Notes: generated by a model not told the origin, from the letters alone. 64,000 nucleotides of DNA from Candidatus Fermentibacterota bacterium (GCA_030592645.1 JAUVIR010000002.1:8065-72064), one strand, 5' to 3'. Counted from the stretch's first letter, positions 34,651-60,211 are shown. Numbers and translations are program-made.

Positions 34651-34657
34651 GATACCG

Positions 34658-36114: not shown

Positions 36115-36135
36115 AAGGGTAAGGCTACAACTGTA

Positions 36136-39915: not shown

Positions 39916-39928
39916 TTGGGCTGAGAAT

Positions 39929-41278: not shown

Positions 41279-42774
41279 TAAGTGCAGGCATTGTACCGCT
41301 TTTTGTAGCGATCCCGCTTGCGGGGGCTTTCTTGATCGCTCTGTTTAAGAAAATAAAGGGAATTCCTGATATATTCGGGGTTTTTGCTTCCGGAAGCATG
41401 TTTATCCTTTCCATTCTCTTCCTACTGAAGATGGAGATCACTCAGAGGATAGTCTATAACATCGGCAACTGGGGCGGATTCAACGAAGTACTCGGAAAAA
41501 TTGTGGGAATTCAGCTCGTGATCGATGGGCTGACCATATTCATGCTCCTGATAGTGAATTTTGTCGCATTCATTGTTGCTGTGTATTCGGTTAATTACAT
41601 GACCAGATACACTCAGAAATGGCAGTTCTACTGCCTGTTCCTCCTCATGCTTGCCGGGATGAATGGTGTTTTGATCACCGGTGATCTGTTCAACCTTTTT
41701 GTATTCGTTGAGATAGCATCCCTTGCAAGCTATGCGCTGGTTGCATTCGGTACCGAGAAACGTGAACTCGAAGCCTCATTCAAGTACGCTGTTATGGGTG
41801 GCGTAGCTTCACTCCTGATCCTGATGGGAGTGGTATTCCTGTACAGCTATACCGGCACACTGAATATGGCCAATATGGCAGAAATCATGTCTGGTTCGGA
41901 GCAGCCTGCCCTGATATATCTTGTATTCGGGCTCTTCCTGACAGGGTTCGGGCTGAAAGCCGCTATGGTTCCGTTCCATGCCTGGCTTCCTGATGCTCAT
42001 CCTTCAGCTCCGGCTCCGATTTCGGCAATGCTGTCCGGTGTATTGATTAAAACCCTGGGAGTGTATGCAATAGCCAGGGTATTCTTCACCATTTTCGGAT
42101 TTCCCCATCAGATCTCGATCATCCTGATGACACTCGGAGCCATGTCAATGGGGGTAGGTGCCCTTGTAGCACTGAGGCAGTGGGATATGAAGAGGCTGCT
42201 TGCCTACAGCTCGATAAGCCAGATAGGTTACATAATGCTCGGATTGGGCATCGGTACACCTCTTGGAATACTGGGAGCCCTGTTTCACCTGTTCAACCAT
42301 TCAATATTCAAATCCCTTCTATTTCTTGATTCGGGAGCCGTTGAATACGCCGCCGGAACAAGGGATTTAAAAGAAATGGGCGGGCTTTCAAGAAAACTTC
42401 CGGTAACCAGCGGGTCCACACTTGCCGGAGCCATGTCACTGGCCGGTATTCCTCCATTCGCGGGTTTCTGGAGCAAACTGATCATCATAATTGCCGCTGT
42501 AGAAGCGAACCACATGAAACTCGCCGCGTGGGCAGTCCTCATGAGCATTGTAACGATTGCCTACATTCTCAAGGTAACAAGATTCGCGTTTCTTGGTGCC
42601 CTCAAAGATAGATTCGTGAATATCAAAGAGGTACCTGTACTCATGAGGATATCACTTGTATTGCTTGCTCTGATCTGCATATTCGGCGGGTTGCTTCTCA
42701 TTCCCGAAGCGAGGGCTGCATTCCTGGAGCCCGCAGTCAGAGTGCTGATTTCCGGAATGGGCGGGGGGGTGTAG
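41275..42774 (+). CDS. MrpD / NuoM-NuoN-like second antiporter subunit
   Basis: HAWLPDAHPSAPAPISA and HLFNHSIFKS motifs of the proton-translocating NuoL/M/N superfamily. 499 aa. Confidence 0.75.
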   Translation: MISAGIVPLFVAIPLAGAFLIALFKKIKGIPDIFGVFASGSMFILSILFLLKMEITQRIVYNIGNWGGFNEVLGKIVGIQLVIDGLTIFMLLIVNFVAFIVAVYSVNYMTRYTQKWQFYCLFLLMLAGMNGVLITGDLFNLFVFVEIASLASYALVAFGTEKRELEASFKYAVMGGVASLLILMGVVFLYSYTGTLNMANMAEIMSGSEQPALIYLVFGLFLTGFGLKAAMVPFHAWLPDAHPSAPAPISAMLSGVLIKTLGVYAIARVFFTIFGFPHQISIILMTLGAMSMGVGALVALRQWDMKRLLAYSSISQIGYIMLGLGIGTPLGILGALFHLFNHSIFKSLLFLDSGAVEYAAGTRDLKEMGGLSRKLPVTSGSTLAGAMSLAGIPPFAGFWSKLIIIIAAVEANHMKLAAWAVLMSIVTIAYILKVTRFAFLGALKDRFVNIKEVPVLMRISLVLLALICIFGGLLLIPEARAAFLEPAVRVLISGMGGGV

Positions 42775-42777
42775 GTC

Positions 42778-43290
42778 ATGAAGAGTAGAATCCTGATGTT
42801 CACATTCGCTTTCGCAGTATGGTGCATTCTCTGCTGGGTGCCGGACACGCAGCATCTGATAGCCGGAGCCGTAGTAGCGCTGATAGTCGCTGCCATTATG
42901 GGTTCGATGTTCGTCACCAGGCCGCATATGCTTTTCAATCCTATCAGGGTTTTCTATTTCCTGTTCTGGTACATTCCGATCTTCATCTGGGAGCTTATTA
43001 GAGCCAATTTCGATGTTGCTTACCGTGTGATTCATCCATCTATGCCCATCAAGCCCGGTATTGTAAGGCTGAAAACTGAACTTAAATCCGACACGGGGCT
43101 CACTTTTCTGGCAAACTCCATAACACTGACCCCCGGTACACTTACGGTTGATATAAATAAGGACGACGGTATTCTGTACATACACTGGATCAATGTTGTG
43201 GGGTCAGACCCCGAGACAACATACCGGGAGATCGGCAGCAGATTCGAACCGATGTTGAAGAAGATTTTCGAAGAAGATGTGGTAAAATAA
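42778..43290 (+). CDS. MrpE/MnhE-like subunit
   Basis: Size, two N-terminal transmembrane helices and position after mrpD. Confidence 0.55.
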   Translation: MKSRILMFTFAFAVWCILCWVPDTQHLIAGAVVALIVAAIMGSMFVTRPHMLFNPIRVFYFLFWYIPIFIWELIRANFDVAYRVIHPSMPIKPGIVRLKTELKSDTGLTFLANSITLTPGTLTVDINKDDGILYIHWINVVGSDPETTYREIGSRFEPMLKKIFEEDVVK

Positions 43291-43661
43291 TGAAGTTAGT
43301 GAGATGGATTTCTGGAACAGTAGTACTGCTTGCAATTATTATCCTTATTATCGTGCTTCCATTCAGAAGTATGTTTTTCTCGCAGGATGCAGCGCATATC
43401 GGTTTTGTCGGCAGGGTTATATACATACTGATACTCTCTTCGGTACTGATCCTGTTCAGGGTTTTAAAAGGCCCGACTGCCGCAGACAGGATTGTTGCCA
43501 TTGACATTTTCGGCATACTGATCGTTGGTCTCTGCGCGGTACTCGGCATTGCAACAGGCCGTTCATGGTACATTGACATCGGCATCGCCTGGGGGCTTCA
43601 GAGCTTCATCGGCACACTGGCTCTTGCCAAGTATCTGGAGGGAAGAAGCTTCGATGATTGA
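43290..43661 (+). CDS. MrpF/MnhF-like subunit
   Basis: Small 3-helix membrane protein between the mrpE-like and mrpG-like genes. Confidence 0.5.
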   Translation: MKLVRWISGTVVLLAIIILIIVLPFRSMFFSQDAAHIGFVGRVIYILILSSVLILFRVLKGPTAADRIVAIDIFGILIVGLCAVLGIATGRSWYIDIGIAWGLQSFIGTLALAKYLEGRSFDD

Positions 43662-43992
43662 TATAATCGGAATGATATTCGTTGGAACAGGGTTGGCATT
43701 TGATGTTCTTGGCTGTCTAGGTCTTGTAAGGCTTCCGGATGTCTACAACAGGCTGCAGGCCGCTACGAAATGTGTAACCCTCGGTACGTGCAGTATTCTT
43801 TTCGGGACGTTCCTGATGTCCGGCGGATTTACCCCGACAGGTTTTAAAGCTCTGATAGCAATAGTATTCCTTGTTCTCGCATCACCTGTAGCGGCACACG
43901 CCATTTCGCGCGGGGCGCACAGAGCTGGTATCAAACTCTGGGACAAGAGTGTAGTGGACAGTTATGCAGAAGATAGAGAAGGAGAAGCTTAA
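43654..43992 (+). CDS. MrpG/MnhG-like subunit
   Basis: MIDIIGMIFVGTGLAFDVLGCLGLVRLPDVYNRLQAATK matches MnhG/PhaG. ATGATTGA overlap with the upstream gene. The ORF-track start at 43525 is too long. Confidence 0.65.
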   Translation: MIDIIGMIFVGTGLAFDVLGCLGLVRLPDVYNRLQAATKCVTLGTCSILFGTFLMSGGFTPTGFKALIAIVFLVLASPVAAHAISRGAHRAGIKLWDKSVVDSYAEDREGEA

Positions 43993-44001
43993 AATAGCGG
44001 G

Positions 44002-44646
44002 TTGCGCAAGCGATACGTTACGGATGGAAATATGAAATATCCAAAGATCAGAGAAATTGTAGAAGCAGTCAAAGCAGTTGTCAAGGGACCATACACATCT
44101 AAATTCCCTGCGGAACCGCATATAGCGCACCCAAATTTCAGAGGGCAGCCGGTATTCGACCAGGATAAGTGTCTTGGATGCCTTGCCTGCGAGGAGTGCT
44201 GTCCTTCGGAAGCCATTACACATGAAGACATCCTTGAAGGCCCCGGTGCTCCGAAAAGAGTGATGATCCATCATACGGATGACTGCATCTATTGCGGGGT
44301 CTGCGTTGATGCCTGCATAAGAGAGACCGGTGATACCGGAATAGTGCAGACCAACGACTGGAATCTGGCATACTTCGACCGCAGCAAGGCTTTCGAGACT
44401 ATAGAGAAAGATCTGCAGCTCTGCGAGGTATGCGGTGTCATTATCGGTACGAAAGATCATCTGGTATGGATCGCTGAAAAATTGGGCGAGCTCTCGTTCT
44501 CAAATCCTACGCTTTACCTCTCAAGGCTTAGAAAACTCGGCCTTGCGGATGATAACATTCAGGCTGTACTGGAAGACAACGGCCGCTCCGACAGGGTTAA
44601 GATCCTCTGCGCTGAATGCAGGCGCAAAACCACCCTCTACGAGTAG
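44002..44646 (+). CDS. NuoI/MbhN-like 2 x [4Fe-4S] ferredoxin subunit
   Basis: CLGCLACEECCP and CIYCGVCVDAC motifs. A second CEVCG...C cluster region near the C-terminus. Confidence 0.7.
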   Translation: MRKRYVTDGNMKYPKIREIVEAVKAVVKGPYTSKFPAEPHIAHPNFRGQPVFDQDKCLGCLACEECCPSEAITHEDILEGPGAPKRVMIHHTDDCIYCGVCVDACIRETGDTGIVQTNDWNLAYFDRSKAFETIEKDLQLCEVCGVIIGTKDHLVWIAEKLGELSFSNPTLYLSRLRKLGLADDNIQAVLEDNGRSDRVKILCAECRRKTTLYE

Positions 44647-44661
44647 AAGCCTAAGCAAATT

Positions 44662-44735
44662 GGGGCCGGGCCTAACATCTAAACATTCATTACCAGTTTA
44701 TCAAAAAGAAATGTTTAGATGTTAGGCCCGGCCCC
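44662..44735. repeat. Palindromic element, copy 3: 26-bp perfect inverted repeat with 22-nt loop (GGGGCCGGGCCTAACATCTAAACATT ... AATGTTTAGATGTTAGGCCCGGCCCC)
   Basis: Arms 44662-44687 and 44710-44735 are exact reverse complements. Same GGGGCCGGGC base as copies 1 and 2. Lies in the 124-bp gap between the NuoI-like gene and hycI. Confidence 0.85.
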
Positions 44736-44770
44736 TGATTCATTATGCCAAAATTCAAGATACGACCCCA

Positions 44771-45229
44771 ATGACACTTAAAGATAAACTGGCTTCTTGC
44801 TTAGAGGGCAAAGTGGTTTACATGGGTATCGGTAATATTCTCAGGGGGGATGACGGTATCGGTCCCGAACTGGTGGCCAGATTGTCCGAGAAAGGTCTGT
44901 GCACAGTGGACGCCGGAACGGCTCCGGAGAATTATATACGTCCGGTCGCCAGGTTCGAACCTGACACGATAGTCATAGTTGATGCTGTTCATCTGGACAG
45001 GGAACCCGGATCTGTTGAACTGCTTGACCGCAGTGAGATATTGGAAAATACGGGTTTTACGACCCATACCCTCTCACCAGTGCTTGTCATGGAAAGACTT
45101 GAGGATGAAACAGGGGCCAGGGTGGTCATGCTTGCAATTCAACCCGGGACTCTTGAGTTCGGCGCGTCATTGTCTCCCGAAGTAGACCGCCTGCTTGATA
45201 TACTGCCGGATCTGCTGACCCTGGAGTAA
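44771..45229 (+). CDS. hycI: Hydrogenase maturation endopeptidase (HycI/HybD family)
   Basis: VYMGIGNILRGDDGIGPELV and downstream His region of the aspartic endopeptidase family. 152 aa. Confidence 0.8.
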   Translation: MTLKDKLASCLEGKVVYMGIGNILRGDDGIGPELVARLSEKGLCTVDAGTAPENYIRPVARFEPDTIVIVDAVHLDREPGSVELLDRSEILENTGFTTHTLSPVLVMERLEDETGARVVMLAIQPGTLEFGASLSPEVDRLLDILPDLLTLE

Positions 45230-45230
45230 T

Positions 45231-46832
45231 GTGAGCACAGGCATGAGACAGAAATCGGGAAATTCCTCCGGGGGAGAGATGGCAATCCTTTTTCTGATGA
45301 TTGCCGTTGTTGTTTCCATATTCCTTCTGATCAGCAATTTCGGTGTTCAGCTTGTTGATGACGGCTATTACTATCTGGAAATTGCCCGGAACATCGCAAG
45401 CGGAAACGGTTTTACCTTTGACGGATTGAATCCGACGAACGGTTTTCATCCGCTGTGGCAGATCATGCTTGTTCCGATATTTCTTCTAACCCGGAGCAGA
45501 GCTCTTGCTGCCATTGCTGTAACCATGCTGCAGGTCCTGCTTTTCGCTGGAACCGGTTTTATGGTCTACAGGATTCTGATCGAAAATACGAAGAAAATCA
45601 GCCTTTCTATCGCTGGCGCTGCCTTCTGGCTTTTTAATCTCTGGTTCTGGAGCAAGGGCGCGCTCTCCGGAATGGAGACCGGGCTTCTGACATTATGTTT
45701 CGGGACGAGTCTTCTTCTTTTTATCCGTTCACTATCCGGATCGTGCAGCACATGGCTGCTATCAGTTTCTCTTATCGTAACCTGCATGGCAAGGCTTGAT
45801 TCAATTGCCCTGGTCATCGCGATCTGTCTGATATTCCTCCTTCTTAAAAGGTTCCGTGATGCTGCTCGCACCGGGCTTCCGGTGATACTTTACCTGGCAC
45901 TCTACATGATAACCAGCAAGCTGGTCTTCGGGGGAATGCTCCCTGTTTCCGGATACATTAAATCCGCTACCGGCAGAGAACTGCTGGGACAGTTATTCGC
46001 AACTGGAAATATGAGGTTTGCTCAGCATGGAGTAACTAATATCTTAAGTTTTGTCACTATTGGAGGACGAGTTCCACTTTTACTATCCCTTGCGGCTATC
46101 GCTGGAATCATCTGGGCAGTACTTCATATCCTCAGAACCGCGGTTACTCCGATCAGAGAAGTGGTTGGCGTATGCTGCATTTACACAGTCTGTCTTTTAC
46201 TCTATTACTCATTTATGTACGAATCGCTTCTCGATATCTACACCTACTACTGGTTTCCGGTGATTCTCGGAATCATTATTTCAATATTTCTTCTACTGTC
46301 GCGAATACAGTACAGGTTACTCAGATCGGGCATTATCTGGATACTTCTCGCTGGACTTATCGGTTTTAATTATGTGTATGCACATGATCGGCTGCAGAGT
46401 TACTCATTTGTGATACCTGATTCGGACAGGCCTGAGCGGAATGGGGTTGAATTCCTGAACACACTTGATGACGGAACAGTGATCGGATCCTGGGACGCGG
46501 GATATGTGGGTTACTACTGCAGGCACAGAGTCGTTAATCTGGATGGTCTTGTAAATAACTATGAATATCAGGTCATCCTGCGTGAACAGGGGCTTGCAGA
46601 ATACCTTGATACGCAGAACATTACATGTATTGCAAACATCGATCACTTCACAGGTCAGAAAGATTTCATGGAACGTATGACCGGATGGTATCTGGCTTTT
46701 GAGGATTCGAGCGCATTCCCCAATCCTGTTTCACTGTTCTCAGTATCAGCGGGAGGCAGCCTGTATGCGTCTCGTCAATCCAGAATATTTTTCGTGTATT
46801 GCAGGTCGGACTCTGTTGATCTTGATAAATGA
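45231..46832 (+). CDS. GT-C fold membrane glycosyltransferase (ArnT/PMT-like family 39/83-like)
   Basis: DDGYYYLEIARNIASGNGF acidic loop motif after the first transmembrane helix and GFHPLW. About 12 transmembrane helices. 533 aa. Confidence 0.5.
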   Translation: MSTGMRQKSGNSSGGEMAILFLMIAVVVSIFLLISNFGVQLVDDGYYYLEIARNIASGNGFTFDGLNPTNGFHPLWQIMLVPIFLLTRSRALAAIAVTMLQVLLFAGTGFMVYRILIENTKKISLSIAGAAFWLFNLWFWSKGALSGMETGLLTLCFGTSLLLFIRSLSGSCSTWLLSVSLIVTCMARLDSIALVIAICLIFLLLKRFRDAARTGLPVILYLALYMITSKLVFGGMLPVSGYIKSATGRELLGQLFATGNMRFAQHGVTNILSFVTIGGRVPLLLSLAAIAGIIWAVLHILRTAVTPIREVVGVCCIYTVCLLLYYSFMYESLLDIYTYYWFPVILGIIISIFLLLSRIQYRLLRSGIIWILLAGLIGFNYVYAHDRLQSYSFVIPDSDRPERNGVEFLNTLDDGTVIGSWDAGYVGYYCRHRVVNLDGLVNNYEYQVILREQGLAEYLDTQNITCIANIDHFTGQKDFMERMTGWYLAFEDSSAFPNPVSLFSVSAGGSLYASRQSRIFFVYCRSDSVDLDK

Positions 46833-46839
46833 CTTCCAG

Positions 46840-47163
46840 CTAACGTAACAATCTACGTTCCAGAAGATCCTGAAGGTCTCTTCTTCCGTCAAGAACACAA
46901 TGAACGAATACCTTCTTACCTTCGATCTCGTAAATTACGCGATAAGGTTTGAAATGGAGTTCCAGATAGTTACTGACACTGATCCGCCTTAGTTCTGGAG
47001 GGATGTGACCACGTTCTGGAAGCTGATCGAGGGTATTACAGATTTCTTCAAGTTTGCCAAGGACGTAGTCTGCCTTGCGATCAGAATCATGTTCAAGAAT
47101 ATAGCGATAGATATCAAAAAGATCTTCTTGGACGTCGTGAATGATAATTACCTGATATGTCAC
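46840..47163 (-). CDS. parE: Type II toxin, RelE/ParE family
   Basis: 107 aa. ParE-like pattern (...SNYLELHFKPYRVIYEIEGKKVFVHCVLDGRRD). 4-bp overlap with the upstream antitoxin gene. Confidence 0.75.
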   Translation of the reverse strand: MTYQVIIIHDVQEDLFDIYRYILEHDSDRKADYVLGKLEEICNTLDQLPERGHIPPELRRISVSNYLELHFKPYRVIYEIEGKKVFVHCVLDGRRDLQDLLERRLLR

Positions 47164-47934: not shown

Positions 47935-48627
47935 CTAACTGTAATTGGATTCCACGAAATCGCAGAATTCTTCCATACCTTCGCCGGTCTTCGCCGAGAC
48001 GGTGAATACAAGAACGTCAGGATTGAGGCTTCTGCATTCCTCGATGGCCCTGTCCACGTCAAAATCAAGATGGGGGAGAAGATCCATCTTGTTAATTACC
48101 AGTACGTTGATAGTGCTGAAAAGACTGGGGTACTTGAGTATTTTGTCGTCACCCTCGGGTACCGAAAGAAGACCAATTCTCAGGTTTTCACCCAGATCGT
48201 AACCGCTTGGACAAATCAGATTCCCAACATTCTCGATCGCCAGTAACTCCAGTATGTCCGAATCCAGCTCCATCTGATCCATTGCATGTTTTACAGCATG
48301 GGCATCAAGATGGCAGGCGCCTCCGGTTTCTATCTGCCAGGCCTGGCATCCGGCTTTCTCTATCCTCTCAGCATCTCTTCTAGTTTGAATATCACCCTCT
48401 ATGACGGCCATTCTGGAACCGAAATAGTGTGCCATGGATTCCAATACGGTAGTTTTACCGGCACCGGGAGAGCTTATCAGATTAAGAGTGTAGATACCTT
48501 TTCCTTTCAGAAATCCTCTGTTCTCCGCGGCAAAGAGGTCATTTTTATTCATGACTGAAGTAGTTATGTCAATTTTCTGTTCAATTATCTCATCACACAT
48601 ATCAATCCTCTCCTTCTTCCAGTTCAA
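47935..48627 (-). CDS. hypB: Hydrogenase nickel incorporation GTPase HypB
   Basis: SPGAGKTT P-loop, CxxC-containing N-terminus, G-domain motifs. 230 aa. Confidence 0.9.
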   Translation of the reverse strand: MNWKKERIDMCDEIIEQKIDITTSVMNKNDLFAAENRGFLKGKGIYTLNLISSPGAGKTTVLESMAHYFGSRMAVIEGDIQTRRDAERIEKAGCQAWQIETGGACHLDAHAVKHAMDQMELDSDILELLAIENVGNLICPSGYDLGENLRIGLLSVPEGDDKILKYPSLFSTINVLVINKMDLLPHLDFDVDRAIEECRSLNPDVLVFTVSAKTGEGMEEFCDFVESNYS

Positions 48628-48949
48628 CGCTGTCCACAGTGAATTCCCTGCCTGAGAGAATTTTCCTGCTTAACGAACCGCAGTCCGGACAGCCCTGATA
48701 GAAATCCTCTGCTTCATATTCAGTATCGCAATCAAGACAGATAAGCTTTGCCCTGGTTTGATTTATGACCAACTCCGGCTCTCCGAACCCTTCGATCTTT
48801 GCAATTTCTGTAAAGCAGAATCTCAGTGATTCAGGGCTGATCCCCGAAAGGGGACCTACAGTGATATTGACCCGGTCCAGGTGAACTTTCCTTCCCAGAA
48901 CGTTACCTATGATCCTGGTCATGTCGTGGGCAAGAGATAGTTCATGCAT
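48602..48949 (-). CDS. hypA: Hydrogenase nickel insertion protein HypA
   Basis: MHELSLA start and CLDCDTEYE...CPDCGS zinc finger. 115 aa. Confidence 0.85.
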   Translation of the reverse strand: MHELSLAHDMTRIIGNVLGRKVHLDRVNITVGPLSGISPESLRFCFTEIAKIEGFGEPELVINQTRAKLICLDCDTEYEAEDFYQGCPDCGSLSRKILSGREFTVDSVELEEGED

Positions 48950-49005
48950 AGTATAGCCGCCATTCAGTTCAGGGAGGAAACACTGTGGTTAAAACCTTTT
49001 CAGAA

Positions 49006-49014
49006 TGGTAGAAT
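49006..49014 (+). promoter_or_regulatory. Possible extended -10 element (TGgTAGAAT) in the hypA/hypF divergent region
   Basis: Read directly. About 55 nt upstream of the hypF ATG. No convincing -35. Confidence 0.2.
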
Positions 49015-49067
49015 ATAACCTGTATTCAATATGTCAATGAGGATTATTCTATTCTGGAAGATCGGGT

Positions 49068-51335
49068 ATGCAGAGACTGAGGCTTGAGATAAGCGGAGCG
49101 GTTCAGGGAGTAGGTTTCAGACCTTTTGTGTATCGCCTCGCCCATCGCTACGGCCTTGCCGGCTGGGTATCCAACACATCTAAGGGTGTGGTCATCGAAG
49201 TTGACGGTGATACCGAAGTCCTCGCGCAGTTCGCCCAGGCTGTGCTGAATGAAAAACCGTCGGTATCCATCGTACAGAACATAAGCAGCAAGTATCTTCT
49301 TGCGGCGGGATATTCGAGCTTTAAGATACTCAAGAGCACCGGGGGAAAGAGGGAGGCATTCGTGCTTCCGGATCTGGCCACCTGTGGAGATTGTATGCTC
49401 GAGATACTTGACCCGGAGAACAGGAGGTATCGATATCCATTCACGAACTGCACGAACTGCGGTCCAAGATATTCAATAATCAATGCAATTCCCTACGACA
49501 GGCCGCAAACGACAATGTCCAGGTTCAGAATGTGTAGTAAATGCAGGGATGAGTACGAGGATCCTTATGACAGAAGATTCCATGCCCAGCCCAATGCCTG
49601 CCCCCAATGCGGCCCTCATCTTGAACTCTGGGATTCTGAAGGTATTATCCTGGCAAAGAGGGATGATGCCCTCATAAGAGCTTCGGAAGAGATACTTGAG
49701 GGGAAAATAATTGCGGTTAAAGGGCTCGGAGGCTTTCATCTTATTACTCTTGCCAGCTCTGATGAAGCTGTCCGAACACTCCGTTCCCGCAAGGGAAGGA
49801 AGATGAAGCCGTTTGCGCTTATGTTTCCATCGATTTCCCTTGTTTCCGAATTCTGTATGCTGTCCCACGGGGAAAGAGAGTCCCTTCAGTCGCCCCGTTC
49901 GCCCATCGTTCTTCTTAAAAAACGCGATGATCAGGATTCAGGCATGTGCATCTCTAAACTGGTATCCCCCTCCAACCCTGAATACGGGGTGATGCTGCCG
50001 TACACACCGCTTCATATCCTGCTTATGAAGGAGATCGGAGAGCCGGTGATTGCTACAAGCGGAAACCTCAGCGATGAACCCATCTGCACCGATGAAATCG
50101 AGGCCCTTCATCGCCTGGAAGGTATAGCGGATCTCCTTCTTGTTCATAACCGTCCGATAGCCCGTCATGTTGATGATTCCATTGTAAGAATATTTGATAA
50201 GAAAGAAATGATTCTGAGAAGGGCAAGGGGCTATGCACCGCTGCCTTTGAGTATGGATGAGAAAGCTGTATCCGTCTTAGCAACAGGAGGACATCTGAAG
50301 AATACACTGGCTCTGTCTATCGGGAAGAACGTTTTCACCAGTCAGCATATCGGGGATCTTGAGACCGTACAGGCCCTGGAGGCTTTCGATGAGGTCTGGA
50401 GCAGCATAGAAGCCCTTTACAACGCCGATCCCGAAATTATCGCATACGATATGCATCCGGACTACATCTCCTCGCAGCGTGCAAGAGAATCGCAGATCAG
50501 GAGTATTCCGGTTCAGCATCACATTGCTCATATATATTCCTGCATGCTTGACAGCGGGGTCAGGCCGCCTTTGCTTGGTATTGCTTGGGATGGAACAGGT
50601 TACGGTACCGATGGTACGGTATGGGGGGGGGAATTCTTCCATTTAACAGGCGGAACCGTGAGCAGGATTGCTCATCTGAGGTGCTTCCCCCTGCCGGGCG
50701 GAGAGAAAGCTGCCCGGGAGCCGAGAAGGTCAGCACTCGGTCTTCTCTCCGAGCTGTTCGATGATCCCGGGCAGCACCTTCCTTCGGGCGCGATTATTCC
50801 AGCGGAGATGGCTATCATGAAAAAGATGATATCCTCGAAGCTTAATTCACCTATCACTTCAAGTGCCGGAAGACTGTTCGATGCGGTTGCCTCGATCCTT
50901 GATCTTCATCAGACAATCGAGTTCGAGGGGCAGGCGGCGATGGCCCTTGAGCACGCGATTGGGGATACGGAGACCGATGAATCCTATCCGATCGAAATTC
51001 TTGAACTTGCAGAGAAACCGATGGTCATCGACTGGGCGCCTTTGATCCATGGTATTATCATCGATGCCTCGAACGGGATAGATACCGGCATTATTTCTGC
51101 TAAGTTCCACAATACACTTGCCGAAGGTATTGCTGCAGTTGCCAGGAGAGTTGGAGAGAAAAAGGTTGTTCTCAGCGGCGGCTGTTTTCAGAATGTCTAT
51201 CTTCTGAAGAGGGTTGTGCAAATACTCGAAAAGATTGGTTACAAGGCGTTCATCCACAGAAATCTTCCTCCGAACGATGGAGGTATCGCTCCGGGGCAGG
51301 TTATGGCAGCGCTTATGATGAATTCAGAAAAATGA
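49068..51335 (+). CDS. hypF: Carbamoyltransferase HypF
   Basis: Acylphosphatase domain (VQGVGFRPFV), two CxxC...CxxC zinc fingers (TNCTNCGPRYSI, PNACPQCGP), YrdC and Kae1-like domains. 755 aa. Confidence 0.9.
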   Translation: MQRLRLEISGAVQGVGFRPFVYRLAHRYGLAGWVSNTSKGVVIEVDGDTEVLAQFAQAVLNEKPSVSIVQNISSKYLLAAGYSSFKILKSTGGKREAFVLPDLATCGDCMLEILDPENRRYRYPFTNCTNCGPRYSIINAIPYDRPQTTMSRFRMCSKCRDEYEDPYDRRFHAQPNACPQCGPHLELWDSEGIILAKRDDALIRASEEILEGKIIAVKGLGGFHLITLASSDEAVRTLRSRKGRKMKPFALMFPSISLVSEFCMLSHGERESLQSPRSPIVLLKKRDDQDSGMCISKLVSPSNPEYGVMLPYTPLHILLMKEIGEPVIATSGNLSDEPICTDEIEALHRLEGIADLLLVHNRPIARHVDDSIVRIFDKKEMILRRARGYAPLPLSMDEKAVSVLATGGHLKNTLALSIGKNVFTSQHIGDLETVQALEAFDEVWSSIEALYNADPEIIAYDMHPDYISSQRARESQIRSIPVQHHIAHIYSCMLDSGVRPPLLGIAWDGTGYGTDGTVWGGEFFHLTGGTVSRIAHLRCFPLPGGEKAAREPRRSALGLLSELFDDPGQHLPSGAIIPAEMAIMKKMISSKLNSPITSSAGRLFDAVASILDLHQTIEFEGQAAMALEHAIGDTETDESYPIEILELAEKPMVIDWAPLIHGIIIDASNGIDTGIISAKFHNTLAEGIAAVARRVGEKKVVLSGGCFQNVYLLKRVVQILEKIGYKAFIHRNLPPNDGGIAPGQVMAALMMNSEK

Positions 51336-51348
51336 CAGGAGTATACTG

Positions 51349-51645
51349 ATGTGTCTTGGAGTTCCCGGAAGGATAGAGGAGATATCTGAGAATGATGATC
51401 CTCTCTTTGTAACCGGTAAAGTAAATTTCAGTGGTGTACTGAGGGAGGTCATCCTTGCAGGCATAAAAGATGCGAAGATCGGCGACTGGGTGATCGTTCA
51501 CGCTGGTTTTGCTCTTAACAAACTGAAGGAAGAGGAAGCCTCGGAAGTATTTGAATATCTTAGACAGATATCCGAATTCGGTCAGGACGAGCTTGAGGAC
51601 AGCGAAGGTATCTCAGATCAGAATGAAGAGGCTGGAATAGATTGA
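51349..51645 (+). CDS. hypC: Hydrogenase assembly chaperone HypC/HupF
   Basis: [10 protein letters not shown]-terminus. Confidence 0.85.
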
Positions 51646-52736
51646 AATATGTTTCGGAATACAGGGACAGAGAATCGGCGATTGCGTATGCCGACCTCAT
51701 CAGAAAACTGGTTACACGGGAATGGAGTATCATGGAAGTCTGCGGCGGGCAGACCCATTCTATTGTTAAATACGGTATAGATCAGCTAATTCCCAATTCC
51801 GTAACCCTTATTCACGGACCGGGATGCCCTGTGTGCGTAACTCCAATTGAGCTTATCGATCAGGCCGCAGAGATCGCCGGGTTTGAAAATGTCATCTTCT
51901 GTTCATTTGGAGATATGCTGCGGGTGCCCGGAAGCATAACCGACCTTTTAGGAGTCAAGGCTTCCGGGGGAGATGTGAGAATGGTTTATTCTCCTGTTGA
52001 TGCAGTCCGTATCGCTGCTGCTAATCCGGACAGGGAGATCGTCTTCTTTGCGGTCGGTTTTGAAACCACTGCCCCTGTTACTGCCGCCGCTGTACTCCAG
52101 GCTGAACATCTCGGCCTGAATAATTTTTCACTGCTTGTTTCTCATGTACTTGTTCCTCCGGCGATCGAGGCTGTTCTATCCGGTGAGGACTGTGCTGTAC
52201 AGGGTTTTCTTGCCGCAGGGCATGTCTGCAGCGTGATGGGATATACAGAATACGAACCGATTGCGGAGAAGTATGGTGTACCTATTGTTGTGACCGGTTT
52301 TGAACCGCTTGATATTCTCGAGGGTATTCATATGTGTTTAAAACAGCTCGAAGAGGGCAGAGCGGATGTGGAGAACCAGTACCTGCGGGCGGTTTCGAGG
52401 GATGGAAACAGGGCTGCCATAGAAATAATGCGAAGCGTATTTGAGATAACAGACCGCAAATGGCGGGGTATCGGAAGAATCCCGGACAGCGGATTTTCAC
52501 TGAGGGAACGATTCGCGGGGTTCGATGCCGGAAAGAGATTCGAAGTTGGCAGCCATGAAGTGGACGAACCGGAGATCTGTATTTCCGGGGAGGTTCTAAG
52601 GGGTAACAAGAAGCCTTTTGAATGTGAAGCATTCGGAAAAGAGTGTACTCCCGAGCGTCCCCTCGGAGCACCAATGGTATCATCCGAAGGAGCCTGTGCA
52701 GCTTATTATCGCTACAGGCTGTCAAGGAAAAGATGA
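51642..52736 (+). CDS. hypD: Hydrogenase expression/formation protein HypD (TTG start)
   Basis: MKYVSEYRD start, [10 protein letters not shown] and FEC..C motifs. 364 aa. Confidence 0.9.
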
Positions 52737-53791
52737 TGGATACAAGAAAAATAACTGAGATTACATGTCCGATTTCCATTTCGGATTACCCCGAGATCAC
52801 AATGGCCCATGGGGGCGGCGGAAGGCTGATGAACGATCTTATCGGGAAGATCATGCTGAGGGTTTTCTCAAATCCCATTCTGGATGCAAGGCATGACGGT
52901 GCAGTTATTGCAGTGGGGGAGGGCAGACTGGCTTTTGCAACGGATTCACACGTTATTACTCCTTTGTTCTTTCCCGGCGGTGATATCGGTGCTCTTTCAG
53001 TATACGGAACTGTTAACGATCTGGCCATGTGCGGAGCGCATGCAAAGTGGCTAAGTGCCGGTTTCATAATAGAGGAAGGGTTTTCCATGGAGACCCTCTG
53101 GAGGATAGTTCTCTCGATGGCCGAAGCATCAATGAAAACCGGTGTATCGATAGTTACCGGAGATACAAAGGTGGTTGACAGGGGCAAGGGAGACGGCATC
53201 TACATTAATACGGCTGGAATAGGCATCATTCCCCCGGGGATCGACATCGATCCTTCAAGAATTACAGAAGGTGATGCAGTGGTTCTAAGCGGTGATATCG
53301 GAAGGCATGGCATGGCTGTAATGGCCATCCGGGAAGGGATAGAACTGGAGAGTACTATCCGGAGTGATCTGGCCCCCCTTGATTCAATGGTCAGGGATCT
53401 TCTGAGGGAGGAGCTGGATATACACTGCATGAGGGATCTCACCAGGGGAGGTCTTGCCAGCGGATTGAATGAGATAGCTTCCATGGTCGATTCATCAATA
53501 AGGATCGAAGAGAATCTGATACCTGTTCAGGATGAGGTTCAGGGCGCATGCGAGATCCTCGGTTTCGATCCTCTTTACGTGGCGAATGAGGGAAGATTCG
53601 TGGTCATCCTTCCGCGGGAAAACGCTGAGAGGGCTGTGGAAATCCTCAGGCAGCACGATAGCGGGCGTCAGGCTGAGATAATCGGCTTTGTGGAGAAACC
53701 GCAGTACGCCGATGTATTAATGACCAGCAGTATAGGCTCTGAGAGAATTGTCGATATGATGAGTGGTGAACAGCTGCCTCGGATATGCTGA
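52733..53791 (+). CDS. hypE: Carbamoyl dehydratase HypE
   Basis: MAHGGGG motif, PurM-like fold, C-terminal ...PRIC cysteine. ATGA overlap with hypD. The ORF-track start at 52643 is too long. Confidence 0.9.
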
Positions 53792-55263
53792 TACAGATGA
53801 ACATCAATAAGATATCGATGAGAACATGGATGCTGGGTGGTTTTGTTCTGGCAGCAGGATTTCTCCTTTTATCCTACAGCTCTGTATTGTCTCAGTATTT
53901 CTGGGATGAGGACGATTTCGCGTACGTTTCTAATGCTATTAATGAGAATTCCCCTGCCTATATTTTAAACAGTGAATTCTATGTACGGTAGTTTCCCAGA
54001 CCAATTGTACACCTTTACTGCTGGCTAATAGCACTATTCTCGGGTACGGTTATCTGGCCCTATTTTCTTTCAAATCTGCTTCTCTATGCTGCTAGCTCAG
54101 TTCTACTATTCAGACTGGTTCACAGGATGTCAGGAAATCTCACAGCCGGGCTTATCGCTGGAGTATTCTACCTTATCTCTCCCTGTGCAACTGATAGCCT
54201 GTACTGGCTGGCTGCCGGAGCAACAGGTTTCCTTTCAGGTTTCTTTATACTTCTTACAGCCAATATTTACATACAGGCCAGGAGAAGCACCGGCCGTAGA
54301 CTTTGTATCTTTGCGTGGTTCACAGCTGTGCTGGCGATGGGATCCAAAGAGTCCGCTTTATCACTGCCGCTTCTTCTCACCCTTCTGGAATTCTCCGAAA
54401 GCGAATCCAGGAAGGGATGGTTTCGAAGACTGCTTCCATTCTACTTGATTGCATTCCTCTTTGTTCTGAATGTAGCTCTTATTCAGCTGTCTTATCCGAA
54501 TGATGGTAATTTCTCAAGGTACGGGCTCAGTTGGATGATTCCCAGGAATTTGCTTCACTACTTCATCTACCCGCTCGCAGGAGCTATGCCTCCAAATATT
54601 GGAGAATACACACTGATCAAATTGATTGTCTATCCGGTAATGTGGATCCTGCCTCTGTTTTTAGGATCAGAGAGGGCGAAGAAACTTACTCTACTGGGAT
54701 TTGGATGGATCGGAATATCATCCTTACCTTTCCTTTCATGGATTATGGATTTTGAAGGGTTTCTCCCGAGGGTTTGTGATATACCTTCACGCTACTTCAA
54801 CATTCCATCCATGGGGGCTTCTATGGTTGTTTGCGGATTCTGTTTAATGCTGCACGATAGATTCAGAAAAACCATCTCGATTATCACCGCTGTTCTTATT
54901 CTTGTTTTCATGGTGTTCACGAGTGTTCAGTGGACCCATAAGAAGGTGCAGCCCATTGTTCATTCTGCTGAAACGGAAGCCTGTCTGGTGGATATTGCCC
55001 TATCATCATGGAATGGTGCAAATTGCTTATATATCGGTGCTTTCGGACTAAGTGAGTTCCGTATTGATTGCTATAACAAAATGTATTTTCACGGAAGCCT
55101 GATACAGGTAGATCCTTTTCCGTTAGATGCTCCAGCAGGTGCTCGAATGCTCTGCGGTCCAGCAGCCACACCAAGGCTTTACATATTTGATGGAAACAGA
55201 TGGAGTGTTGAAAGGTCTTTTGATAGTTGTGCCCGAACCACGGAAATCATCGAGGATAGGTAG
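53785..55263 (+). pseudogene. GT-C fold membrane glycosyltransferase (PMT/ArnT-like) interrupted by a single in-frame TAG at 53989-53991
   Basis: ORFs 53785-53991 and 54127-55263 are in the same frame. The 135 nt between them have no other stop and encode ...FPRPIVHLYCWLIALFSG... (GT-C loop motif). The N-terminus has the WDEDDFAY acidic motif. Confidence 0.5.
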
Positions 55264-55281
55264 ATTCCTGTTTGTACCGGT

Positions 55282-56490
55282 TTATTTCGGGAAGTAGCCC
55301 CTTGACTGAACTTCGTCCTTTGGAACCCTGAGAACGGGTCTTATCAGAGGACCTTCATCTTTCGGACAGATGTTGATATCGAAACCGAAGATACTGCCTT
55401 TTCCCGGCTCACTGATAACGTAGACCCTTCCTCCATGCATGTCGACAATACGTTTGGCTATAGAAAGCCCAAGTCCGATTCCAGCGACTTTCTGACCCGA
55501 AACATCGTTGTTCTTGATCCTTACGAACTCCCTGAAGAGTTTCTTCTGATTATCCTCTGAGATACCGATACCGTTGTCTTCCACTTCCACAGACACCACG
55601 CACCTGCCCATGGTTCTGCTTCGGACTACGATACTGCCATTTTCCGGAGAGTATTTAATAGCGTTTGTGACGAGATTTGTAATCACCTCACGGAGGAGCC
55701 GTTCAACGCCTCCAACAGTAGGCAGATCAGCATCAAGGTCAGATGTCAGCTTGTGATATTTGTGATGCGCAAGATCCTGATTCGCCCGGACAACATCACT
55801 GATAAGTTCGTTAAGGTTGATCTCCTTCGCCTGTTTCTTCAGCTGAGTTGGATCCTCCAGCTGCGCGAAAAGCTGGAAATCGCGCAGAAATGATGCTGCT
55901 TCGTCCAGTCTTGCATGCATCCTGTCGATAAGATGTTCCTGTTTCACTGAGAGAGAATCTCCAAGAAGGGTCTGGAGACTATGAAGCAGCATGGTCGTAG
56001 CCGAAACCGGAGACTTCATGTCATGTATGGCGATGTGAAGGAATGCCTTCCTGAGCTTTGCGAATTCCCTGAGTGAAGAATTGGTTTTTCTGAGTCTCTC
56101 GCTCCGTTCACGCAGCGCTTTGTGTGTCTTCTTCAGTTCAATACTGAGCTCTCCAATAACCAGGGCTACAATAATGAAAGAGAGAACACGAAGTGTATTC
56201 GCCCAGAGGGGGCATCCGCATTGGGCAAGAAGGCTGAAGAAAAACACATCTACCCCGAGTATAACAGCCACGAAGATGGCTTTCCTGCCCCACCAGAAAC
56301 CGGCGAAAATAATGGGTATATAGGCGAAATGAGTGTATCCGATACCCTCGCTACGATCCAGATGGAAATATGCGGTGACTGCTGTAAAAGCAATCATAAG
56401 AACAGAAATGATAACGAATCTGTTAGCAGCGCTTGGGACGCTGTCCTGCATAATTCCAGGCTGCTTCAATCTAGTTTTACCTTCTGTCAT
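55282..56490 (-). CDS. Sensor histidine kinase (polytopic N-terminal membrane domain, HisKA, HATPase_c), no adjacent response regulator
   Basis: H-box (FLHIAIHDMKSP), N-box (NLVTNAIKYS), G-boxes (DNGIGI, GIGLGLSI). Confidence 0.8.
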   Translation of the reverse strand: MTEGKTRLKQPGIMQDSVPSAANRFVIISVLMIAFTAVTAYFHLDRSEGIGYTHFAYIPIIFAGFWWGRKAIFVAVILGVDVFFFSLLAQCGCPLWANTLRVLSFIIVALVIGELSIELKKTHKALRERSERLRKTNSSLREFAKLRKAFLHIAIHDMKSPVSATTMLLHSLQTLLGDSLSVKQEHLIDRMHARLDEAASFLRDFQLFAQLEDPTQLKKQAKEINLNELISDVVRANQDLAHHKYHKLTSDLDADLPTVGGVERLLREVITNLVTNAIKYSPENGSIVVRSRTMGRCVVSVEVEDNGIGISEDNQKKLFREFVRIKNNDVSGQKVAGIGLGLSIAKRIVDMHGGRVYVISEPGKGSIFGFDINICPKDEGPLIRPVLRVPKDEVQSRGYFPK

Positions 56491-56555
56491 TTCGTCGCTT
56501 TCCTGTATGAATTTTAAGTAAGATAAGATAGTCTGAAACAGGTATACTTGTCCAG

Positions 56556-57992
56556 TTAGTTAATTATCCACAGAGCAACCGAATCCTCGCCGCATATAAC
56601 GTTTCTATCACTTCTGTAACCCATTAGGAAATCGAGCGATTCTCCGGCTTCCAGAATGAGATTTGAATACTGTTCGGGGAACGCCAGCAGGTAATCCGAC
56701 CTCTCCTTTATCCATTGCCAGCCTTCTCTATAAGACCCTGGAAGTCTCTGCGAAGTAACAAGACCATCAAGGTCCAGGATTTCCATGCCGGTTATCCATT
56801 TTACAGCTCCGATATCGGCTGCTGCAACAGTTTGCCCGGTGGATACGATAGAGGATAAGTACTGTGCCGGCCTTACATCTATGGAGTATACATCGCCCGA
56901 AGCGTCCGCTCTCCTTCCGGCGAAGATAAAAAGACCCGGCAGCATGGAAACGGCAAGGATAAAAACGTTCAGTTTTCTTCTTCGGATCCCTCCAAGCCAG
57001 TGACTGGTAGCAAGAACTGCTGCAGTAAGGGCTGGTACGTAATACCGCATCTGAAAGAAACTATTCGGCTGAAGGTAAAGAGATGAAGCAAAAAGCAGCA
57101 GCGGGATAAGCGCAAGCGATACTTCAGACCGTCTTTTTACACTGCTCCTTAACAATCCTGCGATAGCGGCAACAGTCGTGAAAAGCAGAAGTGGGGATGT
57201 AAGGAGAAGTCCTTTGAGAAGGCCGGGCATACCTGAAGCTGCAGAAGTGAACCATGAGACCGGCTGCTTGGCGTAAAATGTGGAAGGGAGCGGTAGACCC
57301 ATGGAATGGATATTCCATAACAGCCAGAGAAGGCCGGCGATCAGAGATGGGGCCGCAAGGCGAAGTATATTTACACGAGTTCTCTCTTTAAGGGAGAGGC
57401 CAAGAGGTATGGCAAGCAGAGCAAGTTCGGGTCTGGCAAGGAATGCTCCCATAAGAATGAAGGATGTAACTGTAATTCCTGTTCCGTCCCGTGCGCATCT
57501 CCATACCGCTACTACAGCCAGACATGAGAGGGCAGTTTCCATTCCGCTTGCAGCATGGAAGAAGAACGGACCGGTCATAAGAAGAAGTATTCCTGCAAAG
57601 GGAGGAAGCATGAAGAGAGCTGTGCCTGCTGCCAGCAGAGAAAAAAGCATCAGTACAGCAGGAGCCCATCCGGTTCCGGCAAGAGAAGCAATTGCAGATG
57701 GAAGGAGCCATAGAGGGCTTGTGAATCCAGATGATGGTTCTGCATCGTTGAAACAGAGCGGTGCGGATGTGAAGAGACTTCTGCCGTAGACCAGATGAAT
57801 ATAGGTGTCATCCATGGGAGGGATGTGAACATTGTCCCCGATTATTATCAGTAGAATCACTCCACCGAGCAGTAGCAGCGGAACAGTGAAGTGAACGGAT
57901 TTCTTTCTTTTTACGGGCTTTTTCATACTGATTCTATCACCCTCATTCCGCTCATCGTCAAGGGCGGCAGGGTATCCTTTTGCAGTGGACAA
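56556..57992 (-). CDS. GT-C fold membrane glycosyltransferase (ArnT/PMT-like), paralogue of 45231-46832
   Basis: DDTYIHLVYGRSL acidic loop motif and GFTSPLW, shared with the 45231 ORF. About 12 transmembrane helices. 478 aa. Confidence 0.5.
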   Translation of the reverse strand: MSTAKGYPAALDDERNEGDRISMKKPVKRKKSVHFTVPLLLLGGVILLIIIGDNVHIPPMDDTYIHLVYGRSLFTSAPLCFNDAEPSSGFTSPLWLLPSAIASLAGTGWAPAVLMLFSLLAAGTALFMLPPFAGILLLMTGPFFFHAASGMETALSCLAVVAVWRCARDGTGITVTSFILMGAFLARPELALLAIPLGLSLKERTRVNILRLAAPSLIAGLLWLLWNIHSMGLPLPSTFYAKQPVSWFTSAASGMPGLLKGLLLTSPLLLFTTVAAIAGLLRSSVKRRSEVSLALIPLLLFASSLYLQPNSFFQMRYYVPALTAAVLATSHWLGGIRRRKLNVFILAVSMLPGLFIFAGRRADASGDVYSIDVRPAQYLSSIVSTGQTVAAADIGAVKWITGMEILDLDGLVTSQRLPGSYREGWQWIKERSDYLLAFPEQYSNLILEAGESLDFLMGYRSDRNVICGEDSVALWIIN

Positions 57993-58061
57993 AGACCCTC
58001 AATCGTGTTAAAATTATGGTATATGTGCAACTGATTACAGAACTACCCGGGAGACTGTTTA

Positions 58062-58433
58062 TTGAGAATTATCGGTGTTGGAATAGATATAGTTGACATC
58101 GGTATTTTCAAGAGCCGTCTTGATGATGGAATGATAGCAGAGCTGTTTCTTCCGGGGGAAATTGAATACTGTTCATCCAGGGCGCGTCCATGGGAGAGCT
58201 ATGCGGCCAGATTTTCCGCGAAGGAAGCATCCTTCAAAGCGCTTGGTGTCGGGTTATCTTCGGGACTGCGCTGGAAAAATGTCGAAATAATCAAAGAGGA
58301 GTCCGGTGCAGTATCCGTGAAGCTAAGCGGGAAAGCGCTGGAACAGGCAGGGAATTTAAAGGTAAAGCAGATACGTCTTTCCATCAGTCATTCCGGTGAA
58401 AGCGCCATAGCTGTTGTCACTATGGAGGGCTGA
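58062..58433 (+). CDS. acpS: Holo-[acyl-carrier-protein] synthase (TTG start)
   Basis: IGVGIDIVDI N-terminal motif and FSAKEA...K ACPS family core. 123 aa. Confidence 0.75.
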   Translation: MRIIGVGIDIVDIGIFKSRLDDGMIAELFLPGEIEYCSSRARPWESYAARFSAKEASFKALGVGLSSGLRWKNVEIIKEESGAVSVKLSGKALEQAGNLKVKQIRLSISHSGESAIAVVTMEG

Positions 58434-58462
58434 AGGAGAATCGAAGGATTGGAGGAGTCAAC

Positions 58463-60211
58463 TTGAGTAATATCGGGTCTTACAACGATGGAATGAAGGA
58501 TTTCAACTGGGATATAGCAAAGGATATTCTTGACTGGAAGGAAGGAGAAATCCTCAACATTGGAGCCATCTGCTCGGACAGGATCTGCAGCAGAGGTGAT
58601 GGGAATAAAACAGCCCTTATATGGGAAGGTTTCGGTGATAAGAGCGCCAGGTATACTTTCGACGATCTAAGAGTTTACTCGAACGGATTCGCTGATTTTC
58701 TAAGCAAGCAGGGTATTCAGCCTGGTGACAGGGTCTGTATTTTTATGGATAAGATCCCGAGTCTCTATTTCTCTTTCCTCGGCATTCTCAAACTTGGCGC
58801 AATCGCGCAGCCGCTTTTCTCAGCATTTGGTGATGAGTCTCTGGAAGTGAGGCTTGCCAGTGCGGGAACCAGGGCGATTATCACAACTCGCAAGCATGCC
58901 CGGAAAGTCCGGAAGATCAAGGACAGGTTGCCGGATCTGGAGAAGATCATAGTTGTAGAGGGAAACCCTGAAAAGCTGAAGGAAGGGGAGATATTCTTCG
59001 ATGTGGAGAAGAGCCCCAGAGTTGAGAAATTCGATGTCTACCATTCCACGCCGGAAACCCCTTCTGTTCTTCATTACACCTCCGGGACAACAGGTCAGCC
59101 TAAGGGTGCCCTTCATGTTCACAATTCCATCTGGGGCCAGGCACTTACAACCAGCTGGGTTCTTGATCTGCAGGATGATGATATATACTGGTGTACAGCG
59201 GATCCCGGATGGGTTACCGGAACAAGCTACGGTATTATCGGACCTTGGGCACTGGGCGCAACACAATGTGTTCTGGATTCAGGCTTCACATCTTCAAGAT
59301 GGTATAAGTTCATTCAGGATAACCGGATAACCGTGTGGTATTCAGCCCCTACAGCTATCAGGGCATTGATGAAGGATGGTAATGAGTTAGTCAGTTCCTT
59401 TGATCTTTTATCGCTTCGGCACCTTGCTTCAGTTGGCGAGCCGCTGAATGCAGAGGCGGTTATATGGAGCGGGGAAGTATTCAGAGGGCTCAAATTCCAC
59501 GATACTTTCTGGCAGACGGAAACCGGTGCCATGATGATTACGAACTTCCCTGGAATGGAAATACGACCTGGTTCAATGGGCAAGCCTTTTCCAGGGATAA
59601 AGGCCGCTGTCCTTGACCTTGATACTCACGAACCCCTGGATGAGTCCGGAAAGGTAGGGCTGATAGCTTTCCGTCCCGGATGGCCGTCGATGTTCAGGCA
59701 GTACTGGAAGCAGCTTGATACTTACAGGAGCAAGTTCGTTGGAGCTGCTGAGAATGCCATGCCTGATGAACTCAGGACCAATCCCGATCTCTGGTACGTC
59801 TCTGGAGATAGAGCAAGCATCGATAAGGATGGATACTACTGGTTCGTGGGCAGGGACGATGATGTAATAAACACAGGAGGACATCTCGTGGGGCCCTTCG
59901 AAATCGAATCAGCTCTTGTCGAGCATGAAGCCATTGCAGAGGCTGCTGCGGTTGGCAAACCGGACAAAGTTAATATGGAAGTTGTGAAGGCATTCGTTAC
60001 ATTGAAACCGGGTTACGAGCCTTCTGATGAACTTGAGCTGGATATCATGAACTTCATAAGGAAAAGGCTTTCTCCGCTGGCGATGCCTCAGGAGATTGAG
60101 TATCGTGATAAACTGCCGAAAACACGTTCGGGCAAGATCGTCAGAAGATATCTCAGAGCAATTGAATGGGGAGAAGAGGTTGGCGATATGTCATCCTTTT
60201 CCGACGAATAG
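58463..60211 (+). CDS. AMP-forming acetyl-CoA synthetase-like ligase (short ACS family form; TTG start)
   Basis: YTSGTTGQPKG AMP-binding motif. C-terminal region (WYVSGD...DGYYWFVGRDDDVIN..GH, LPKTRSGKIVRR) closely parallels E. coli Acs. 582 aa. Confidence 0.8.
   Translation: MSNIGSYNDGMKDFNWDIAKDILDWKEGEILNIGAICSDRICSRGDGNKTALIWEGFGDKSARYTFDDLRVYSNGFADFLSKQGIQPGDRVCIFMDKIPSLYFSFLGILKLGAIAQPLFSAFGDESLEVRLASAGTRAIITTRKHARKVRKIKDRLPDLEKIIVVEGNPEKLKEGEIFFDVEKSPRVEKFDVYHSTPETPSVLHYTSGTTGQPKGALHVHNSIWGQALTTSWVLDLQDDDIYWCTADPGWVTGTSYGIIGPWALGATQCVLDSGFTSSRWYKFIQDNRITVWYSAPTAIRALMKDGNELVSSFDLLSLRHLASVGEPLNAEAVIWSGEVFRGLKFHDTFWQTETGAMMITNFPGMEIRPGSMGKPFPGIKAAVLDLDTHEPLDESGKVGLIAFRPGWPSMFRQYWKQLDTYRSKFVGAAENAMPDELRTNPDLWYVSGDRASIDKDGYYWFVGRDDDVINTGGHLVGPFEIESALVEHEAIAEAAAVGKPDKVNMEVVKAFVTLKPGYEPSDELELDIMNFIRKRLSPLAMPQEIEYRDKLPKTRSGKIVRRYLRAIEWGEEVGDMSSFSDE

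Follow-up and report, generated by a model that had tools for sequence, protein, structure and literature searches.

A probable recent nonsense mutation in an accessory GT-C fold glycosyltransferase gene of Candidatus Fermentibacterota

Introduction

The closest described counterparts of the membrane protein considered here are glycosyltransferases of the GT-C fold: the GT39 enzymes Pmt1, Pmt2 and Pmt4 together with the bacterial PMT_2 superfamily (PF13231), ArnT of family GT83, and AglB, PglB and STT3. GT-C enzymes bear catalytic acidic residues in the loop that follows the first transmembrane helix (TM1), and glycosyltransferases are often phase-variable. As genetic loci, the nearest parallels are ordinary nonsense pseudogenes and glycosylation genes of the presence–absence kind.

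Here we analyse a gene of a Candidatus Fermentibacterota bacterium that is split by an in-frame stop codon. Compared with the GT39 and PMT_2 proteins, its product shows just 8–14% identity in structural alignments, has no MIR or TPR domains, carries an alpha/beta C-terminal domain instead, and does not itself reach the curated Pfam PMT_2, PMT or GT83 threshold. With ArnT, AglB, PglB and STT3 there is no sequence-level relationship, and a WWDYG-type motif as in OST is not apparent among the invariant columns of the family, on inspection of those columns. The locus resembles ordinary nonsense pseudogenes and presence–absence glycosylation genes in its single premature stop within an otherwise intact gene, in the deletions and the IS insertion seen in relatives, and in its mosaic flanks; it differs from ordinary pseudogenes only in belonging to a family without a curated model and to an uncultivated host lineage. 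A sequence-only reading of this DNA had favoured the view that a phase-variable or decaying paralogue had very recently acquired a nonsense mutation, over a sequencing or assembly error and over low-level programmed readthrough.

Results

A single amber codon interrupts a conserved reading frame

The window (the whole stretch of DNA that was analysed, 64,000 nucleotides) carries a forward-strand frame at 53785–55263 that comprises 493 codons in translation. Its sole internal stop is a TAG at 53989–53991 (+), codon 69 counted from 53785, located in the first extracytoplasmic loop (EL1) directly before TM2. The stop leaves two ORFs in the same frame, both predicted by gene callers: a 68-aa ORF (P0289; 53785–53991, +) with TM1 and part of EL1, and a 378-aa ORF (P0001; 54127–55263, +) that is an N-terminally truncated remnant. 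The 135 nt separating them (53992–54126, +) contain no further stop, and their product, FPRPIVHLYCWLIALFSG, contributes TM2 and neighbouring helices.

Queried with the read-through sequence, a set of 5.8 billion proteins yielded P0001 (100% identity) and 18 full-length relatives of 476–501 aa, 38–62% identical at 92–99% query coverage, one of them from Candidatus Aegiribacteria sp. MLS_C; apart from the two remnants of the split gene, no database protein was more than 62% identical to it. All of these relatives read through at the aligned position (a stop in 0/18; alignment A1). Because 18 uninterrupted homologues span the junction, the alignment identifies 53785–55263 as one gene broken by a stop and not as a chance arrangement; translation and homologues together confirm the earlier claim that a membrane glycosyltransferase gene is split by a single in-frame amber codon. 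In the family alignment of 19 members (the window sequence and the 18 homologues), F70, P71, R72, P73, H76, L77 and Y78 are invariant in 19/19, which bears out the impression that the 135 nt after the stop encode conserved sequence; N97 and L107 are further invariant residues of this segment.

The column of the stop itself varies among homologues (A/E/M/H/Y/C/F/G) within a local motif, Y-V/I-Q-x-F-P-R-P, that reads Y-V-R-stop-F-P-R-P in the window. Directly 5' of the TAG, the window has CGG (Arg; 53986–53988, +) where 18/18 homologues have Gln (CAG). In homologue DNA, the CAG is followed by GAA, GAG, ATG or GGC; comparison with orthologues, which had been suggested as a way to the ancestral codon, hence meets only sense codons at the position of the TAG. 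Taking CAG GAG as the ancestor, the CGG TAG of the window requires two substitutions, 2 nt apart.

The complete frame of this GT-C fold glycosyltransferase pseudogene is assigned to 53797–55263 (+). Its start is probably the ATG at 53797, 6 nt past the hypE stop, rather than the alternative ATG at 53785, which overlaps that stop; the second ATG is the likelier start because homologue N-termini align there and not at 53785. No Shine-Dalgarno motif was found before ATG 53797, and a GGAGA motif precedes the start of the orthologues in loci L003, L004 and L038. The ATG at 53785 arises from the penultimate hypE codon, ATA (Ile), which is ATC in relatives that have no gene at this site (window 53783–53791).

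Downstream of the TAG, no in-frame ATG, GTG or TTG occurs within 53992–54126, and the first such codon is that at 54127, 45 codons on. The possibility of a reinitiation signal near 54127 had been raised, and a Shine-Dalgarno motif was not found upstream of it. Residues F70–Y78, N97 and L107 fall in neither fragment, and the full conserved core is missing even from both together. It is most improbable that the 68-aa and 378-aa products, or a reinitiated product, form an active enzyme: both ORFs are called as genes, and split membrane proteins are sometimes able to assemble, yet residues 70–114, with FPRP, HLY, N97 and L107, would be missing, the restart has no Shine-Dalgarno motif before it, and no relative shows such a split. 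Since the restart lies past invariant residues and without that motif, the TAG allele is best read as a predicted null.

The protein adopts a GT-C fold and belongs to a small family

Sequence models gave little purchase on the protein. The read-through protein matched no Pfam family at E<=0.01 and P0008 none at E<=1; in NCBIfam, neither the post-stop segment nor P0002 had a meaningful match; and the best PDB match to the family profile by sequence had E=0.45. An AF2 model (pLDDT 85.2, pTM 0.87) was superimposable on solved GT-C enzymes across the polytopic membrane module, with comparison figures of 20.2 for Pmt4, 19.3 for ALG12, 18.5 for AglB, 17.7 for Pmt2, 17.1 for ArnT, 16.9 for STT3B and 15.6 for AftD. 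In this model, a small alpha/beta C-terminal domain occupies residues ~410–480, and a D-E-D-D motif (53905–53916, +) directly follows helix 12–30 (TM1) and leads into a loop. Its residues D41, E42, D43 and D44 are invariant in 19/19, which makes DEDD the candidate catalytic acidic motif of EL1, a role proposed by analogy; it is retained by the 68-aa fragment only. The structural comparison establishes the GT-C fold of the modelled protein, and it is from this fold only that we infer glycosyltransferase activity, a donor and an acceptor.

In an exhaustive profile search, cluster representatives numbered only 11 at E<=1e-30 but 25,255 at E<=0.001, some of the latter with fused TPR repeats. Only one remote relative, P0022, clears the Pfam PMT_2 cut-off (26.1), at 31 bits. 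Given the few close matches, the many distant ones and the PMT_2 assignment of P0022, the split gene is a member of a small unmodelled clade within a large PMT/ArnT-like GT-C superfamily. The family occurs mostly in Candidatus Aegiribacteria (Fermentibacteria).

The stop codon recurs in three assemblies

The source contig (90,992 bp, NCBI) carries the TAG and the 378-aa remnant. A 15,201-bp Logan contig of run SRR18936875 (L001) shows no difference from the window across 7,137 bp, the TAG among them. Furthermore, a 53-aa protein (P0290; M16 to R68) of a second run, SRR18920792, falls into one cluster with the 68-aa remnant; in that run, a 3,066-bp contig (L039) matches window 51315–54380 at 99.28% and has the same CGG TAG. 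L039 differs from the window at 22 positions, all in hypC (51345–51558) and within 214 bp, and represents a distinguishable haplotype. SRR18936875 and SRR18920792 may share a study site, and a literature search for both accessions gave no match.

The sequence-only reading had kept open a sequencing or assembly error, with a sense codon at 53989–53991 in the organism. The evidence on the TAG comes from assemblies and not from reads, and the adjacent, unusual Q-to-R change produces a local two-base cluster that is error-like in appearance. Against this stand the identical CGG–TAG in three assemblies, from two runs and no fewer than two pipelines, those of the source contig and of Logan, and a TAG-bearing haplotype that differs at 22 other sites. 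Because three assemblies, two runs and two haplotypes carry it, the TAG is genuine and an artefact is very unlikely; the error option is essentially excluded. A minority intact allele may exist in the same populations; a scan of JGI metagenomes with the post-stop protein recovered no same-species copy and hence no intact allele there.

Related loci lack, retain or have disrupted the gene

Upstream of the split gene lies hypE (52733–53791, +), the last gene of hypF-C-D-E, whose stop overlaps or abuts the glycosyltransferase start. The longest hypE ORF begins with GTG at 52643 (382 aa, 94-nt overlap with hypD), and the gene call on the Logan contig, 352 aa, corresponds to a start at 52733. The hypF-C-D-E genes (49068–53791) come after an apparent membrane-bound hydrogenase or Mrp-antiporter-like cluster at ~33800–47000, with Proton_antipo_M subunits at 38212–39915 and 41275–42774 and a small ORF, 36136–36558, that is NuoB-like by eye. 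In related loci (L006), hypA and a cobW/hypB-like gene lie upstream. On the other side, a convergent histidine kinase gene (55282–56490, −) forms the downstream boundary of the variable segment. A promoter and terminator scan around the glycosyltransferase gene gave results no different from shuffled sequence. As the glycosyltransferase is the last gene before the convergent histidine kinase, no polar effect of the stop on other genes should be expected.

Beyond the kinase, a 478-aa protein is encoded at 56556–57992 (−), and a 533-aa membrane protein at 45231–46832 (+) is homologous to it (hhalign 97.8%, E=7.8e-13, 422 columns). These two had been taken as intact paralogues of the split gene, a claim that did not hold: the 478-aa protein has a GT-C fold of a different family, neither protein has a detectable sequence relation to the split gene (hhalign probability 1–2%), and no paralogue emerged when the read-through protein was compared with the window by tblastn (next best E=0.16). 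Redundancy is not established, because the supposed paralogues share a common fold class, and not a family, with the split gene.

The contexts of related loci were tabulated, with identities to the window given here as hypE / kinase / 478-aa gene. The whole glycosyltransferase gene is precisely missing between hypE and kinase in L006 (93 / 98 / 96%), L007 (92 / 95 / 89%), L008 (85 / 89 / 82%), L010 (82 / 88 / 81%), L012 (81 / 72 / 73%), L013 (78 / 70 / 68%) and L016 (62 / 62 / 52%). It is intact at the hypE–kinase position in L035 (79 / 76 / –%; glycosyltransferase 61%), L038 (74 / 68 / 56%; 58%) and L003, from MLS_C (67 / 70 / 52%; 55%), present in part in L024 (– / 64 / 56%), and present but split by an insertion in L004 (74 / 68 / –%). 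The neighbouring 478-aa gene has relatives at 96, 89, 87, 82% and lower; the glycosyltransferase has none above the 62% of its best homologue. In the closest case, blastn aligns L006 with window 48002–53792 at 93.0% and with 55283–59702 at 97.7%; in place of the 1,490-bp presence/absence segment at 53793–55282, L006 has a 15-nt spacer (L006:4421–4435).

In L004 (Ca. Aegiribacteria sp. BLK3-3.bin.115, JAWOBF010000069.1), a ~1.3-kb insertion (L004:1410–2726) interrupts the gene; it contains orfA (HTH_Tnp_1) as well as orfB (rve), its terminal inverted repeats are imperfect, and a CTG is duplicated at the target. On the basis of these two ORFs, the inverted repeats and the CTG duplication, the insertion is an IS3-family element. 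With the element removed, the sequence M-V-S-L-E-K is restored as in the intact P0004; the C-terminal remnant of the L004 gene is the database protein P0017, with 6 member sequences. Since the gene is absent in seven related loci and IS3-split in L004, comparison across loci indicates that it is accessory and dispensable in the lineage. Intact family members, 59–61% identical, are also found at L002:1040–2545, L036:1022–2467 and L037:533–1978 with no hypE or kinase nearby, those in L036 and L037 adjoining a glutamate dehydrogenase gene; owing to these other contexts, the link with the hyp operon is not obligatory.

Glycosyltransferases are often phase-variable as a class, and this one has been inactivated by three different routes in the lineage, both of which would suit a stop that is one state of a reversible, high-frequency on/off switch of a surface-modifying enzyme. 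The site itself speaks against such a switch, which we consider hardly credible: the change is a substitution without known high-rate reversal; no tandem repeat or homopolymer lies at or near the TAG, and TRF found no repeats over 53700–55300 (the site reads GTACGGTAGTTTCCC); both samples show the same state; and, among the adjacent ORFs examined, no inverted repeat or invertase was noted. From the earlier phrase "phase-variable or decaying paralogue", the decaying gene stands, and the phase-variable part falls with the missing repeat tract and the base substitution.

The empty site is old and its flanks are mosaic

The spacers of L006, L007, L008 and L010 are mutually homologous, and for this reason sequence comparison indicates that the empty site is old. 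A GATGAA shared after the hypE stop is suggestive of the spacers retaining remnants of the gene's ends, in sequences that are too short for more than a suggestion. On the kinase side, the gene-bearing window is nested among empty-site relatives: the window and L006 are 97% identical, and both are 90–94% identical to L007. In hypD, by comparison, L006 and L007 are 92.9% identical, and either is ~91% identical to the window. Sliding windows against L006 reveal a divergent patch at 51578–53377 (hypD–hypE) with 87–95% identity, within surroundings of 95–99%; the final ~115 bp ahead of the junction show 98% identity, as does the sequence immediately beyond it. Mosaicism of this kind suggests that homologous recombination has taken place around the locus. 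The hypD–hypE patch and the hypC differences between the two haplotypes both look like short recombination tracts.

The identity ranking of the glycosyltransferase follows that of its neighbours, which fits vertical descent. The gene-carrying allele may have been retained, the empty allele may have spread, or the gene may have been re-imported by recombination; polymorphism, too, may be among the histories of the window copy. A foreign origin was considered from composition and set aside: the G+C content of the gene (44.3%, against a gene mean of 48.9 +/- 2.2%) is only marginally low, with GC3 within 1.2 sd, and makes too weak an argument.

Apart from the stop, the gene appears undecayed

Among the 62 columns without variation in the other 18 sequences, only two are changed in the window (Q68R and G380S); when the intact homologues are left out one at a time, each deviates from the invariant columns at 0–6 positions. 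Eighteen Tajima relative-rate tests (six sisters, three outgroups) detected no excess of change on the window branch (all p>0.05). With no rate acceleration and so few invariant columns changed, these comparisons indicate that the nonsense mutation is recent and that constraint on the gene had been normal for essentially its whole history.

A post-stop segment that keeps all its invariant residues is predicted by a recent mutation and equally by continued translation. Programmed or tolerated readthrough, by a suppressor tRNA, pyrrolysine or near-cognate decoding, would leave some full-length enzyme still being made, and it would accord with the retention of every invariant residue in the 45 codons after the TAG and with a gene that bears no sign of decay. 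That undecayed state, however, is equally expected of a recent mutation, and the remaining observations disfavour decoding of the TAG. All 18 homologues lack a stop in this column and its vicinity, and the residue of the column is itself variable. Of the window's 45 stop-to-stop ORFs with 200 codons or more, 13 end in TAG (TGA 21, TAA 11), in line with the earlier remark that TAG serves as a genuine stop elsewhere in this DNA. No other gene of the 64-kb window is split by a stop, same-frame neighbours being ordinary adjacent genes (e.g., that at 36136–36558), and the glycosyltransferase is the sole split gene of the 64 kb. No tRNA lies within the window. The base after the TAG is T, and TAG followed by T is a strong termination context in E. 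coli. The programmed readthrough that had been listed as an option accordingly finds no support, and we hold readthrough of any kind to be very unlikely.

Discussion

Taken together, these results make it highly probable that the TAG is a genuine, recent nonsense mutation in an accessory GT-C gene of an uncultivated Aegiribacteria population, one that has been lost repeatedly in the lineage, and that the locus is an ordinary pseudogene. The very recent nonsense mutation in a decaying gene favoured by the sequence-only reading is largely upheld, on grounds other than the two supposed paralogues that had been offered as its reason: the TAG is genuine, the rest of the gene is undecayed, and relatives have lost or disrupted it. 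No new mechanism is implied.

In its intact form, the locus would encode a ~490-aa polytopic GT-C fold glycosyltransferase of a small uncharacterised family. By analogy with PMT, ArnT and OST, this enzyme would take a sugar from a polyprenyl-phosphate donor and pass it to an acceptor on the outer side of the membrane, with the DEDD motif of the first external loop presumably acting in catalysis. A base substitution has made the TAG at codon 69, beside the Gln-to-Arg change. Translation is predicted to end after TM1 and part of EL1, and the next in-frame start would come too late, 45 codons on and beyond the invariant FPRP–HLY segment, with no ribosome-binding site. The lineage has lost the gene repeatedly: the closest relatives have it deleted, another MAG has an IS3 insertion in it, and the window carries the nonsense mutation.

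A bolder reading is that the TAG is decoded at low efficiency, through near-cognate readthrough or an unrecognised suppressor tRNA, and that the population thereby keeps, strongly down-tuned, a surface glycosyltransferase whose gene is wholly deleted in close relatives; we think this very doubtful. More likely than such decoding is a milder reading, in which presence or absence of a surface-modifying enzyme at the hypE–kinase junction would be a polymorphism of long standing: homologous recombination would exchange the gene, and phage or another frequency-dependent pressure would lead to its being knocked out again and again.

For annotation, the recent nonsense mutation means that the 378-aa P0001 and the 68-aa ORF both derive from a single pseudogene, and that neither should be regarded as a protein. 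The lineage is uncultivated, and the families of the split gene and of the other two membrane proteins have no Pfam or NCBIfam model. With loss by three independent routes at one conserved chromosomal junction, the locus is a compact example of how flexible cell-surface glycosylation genes can be.
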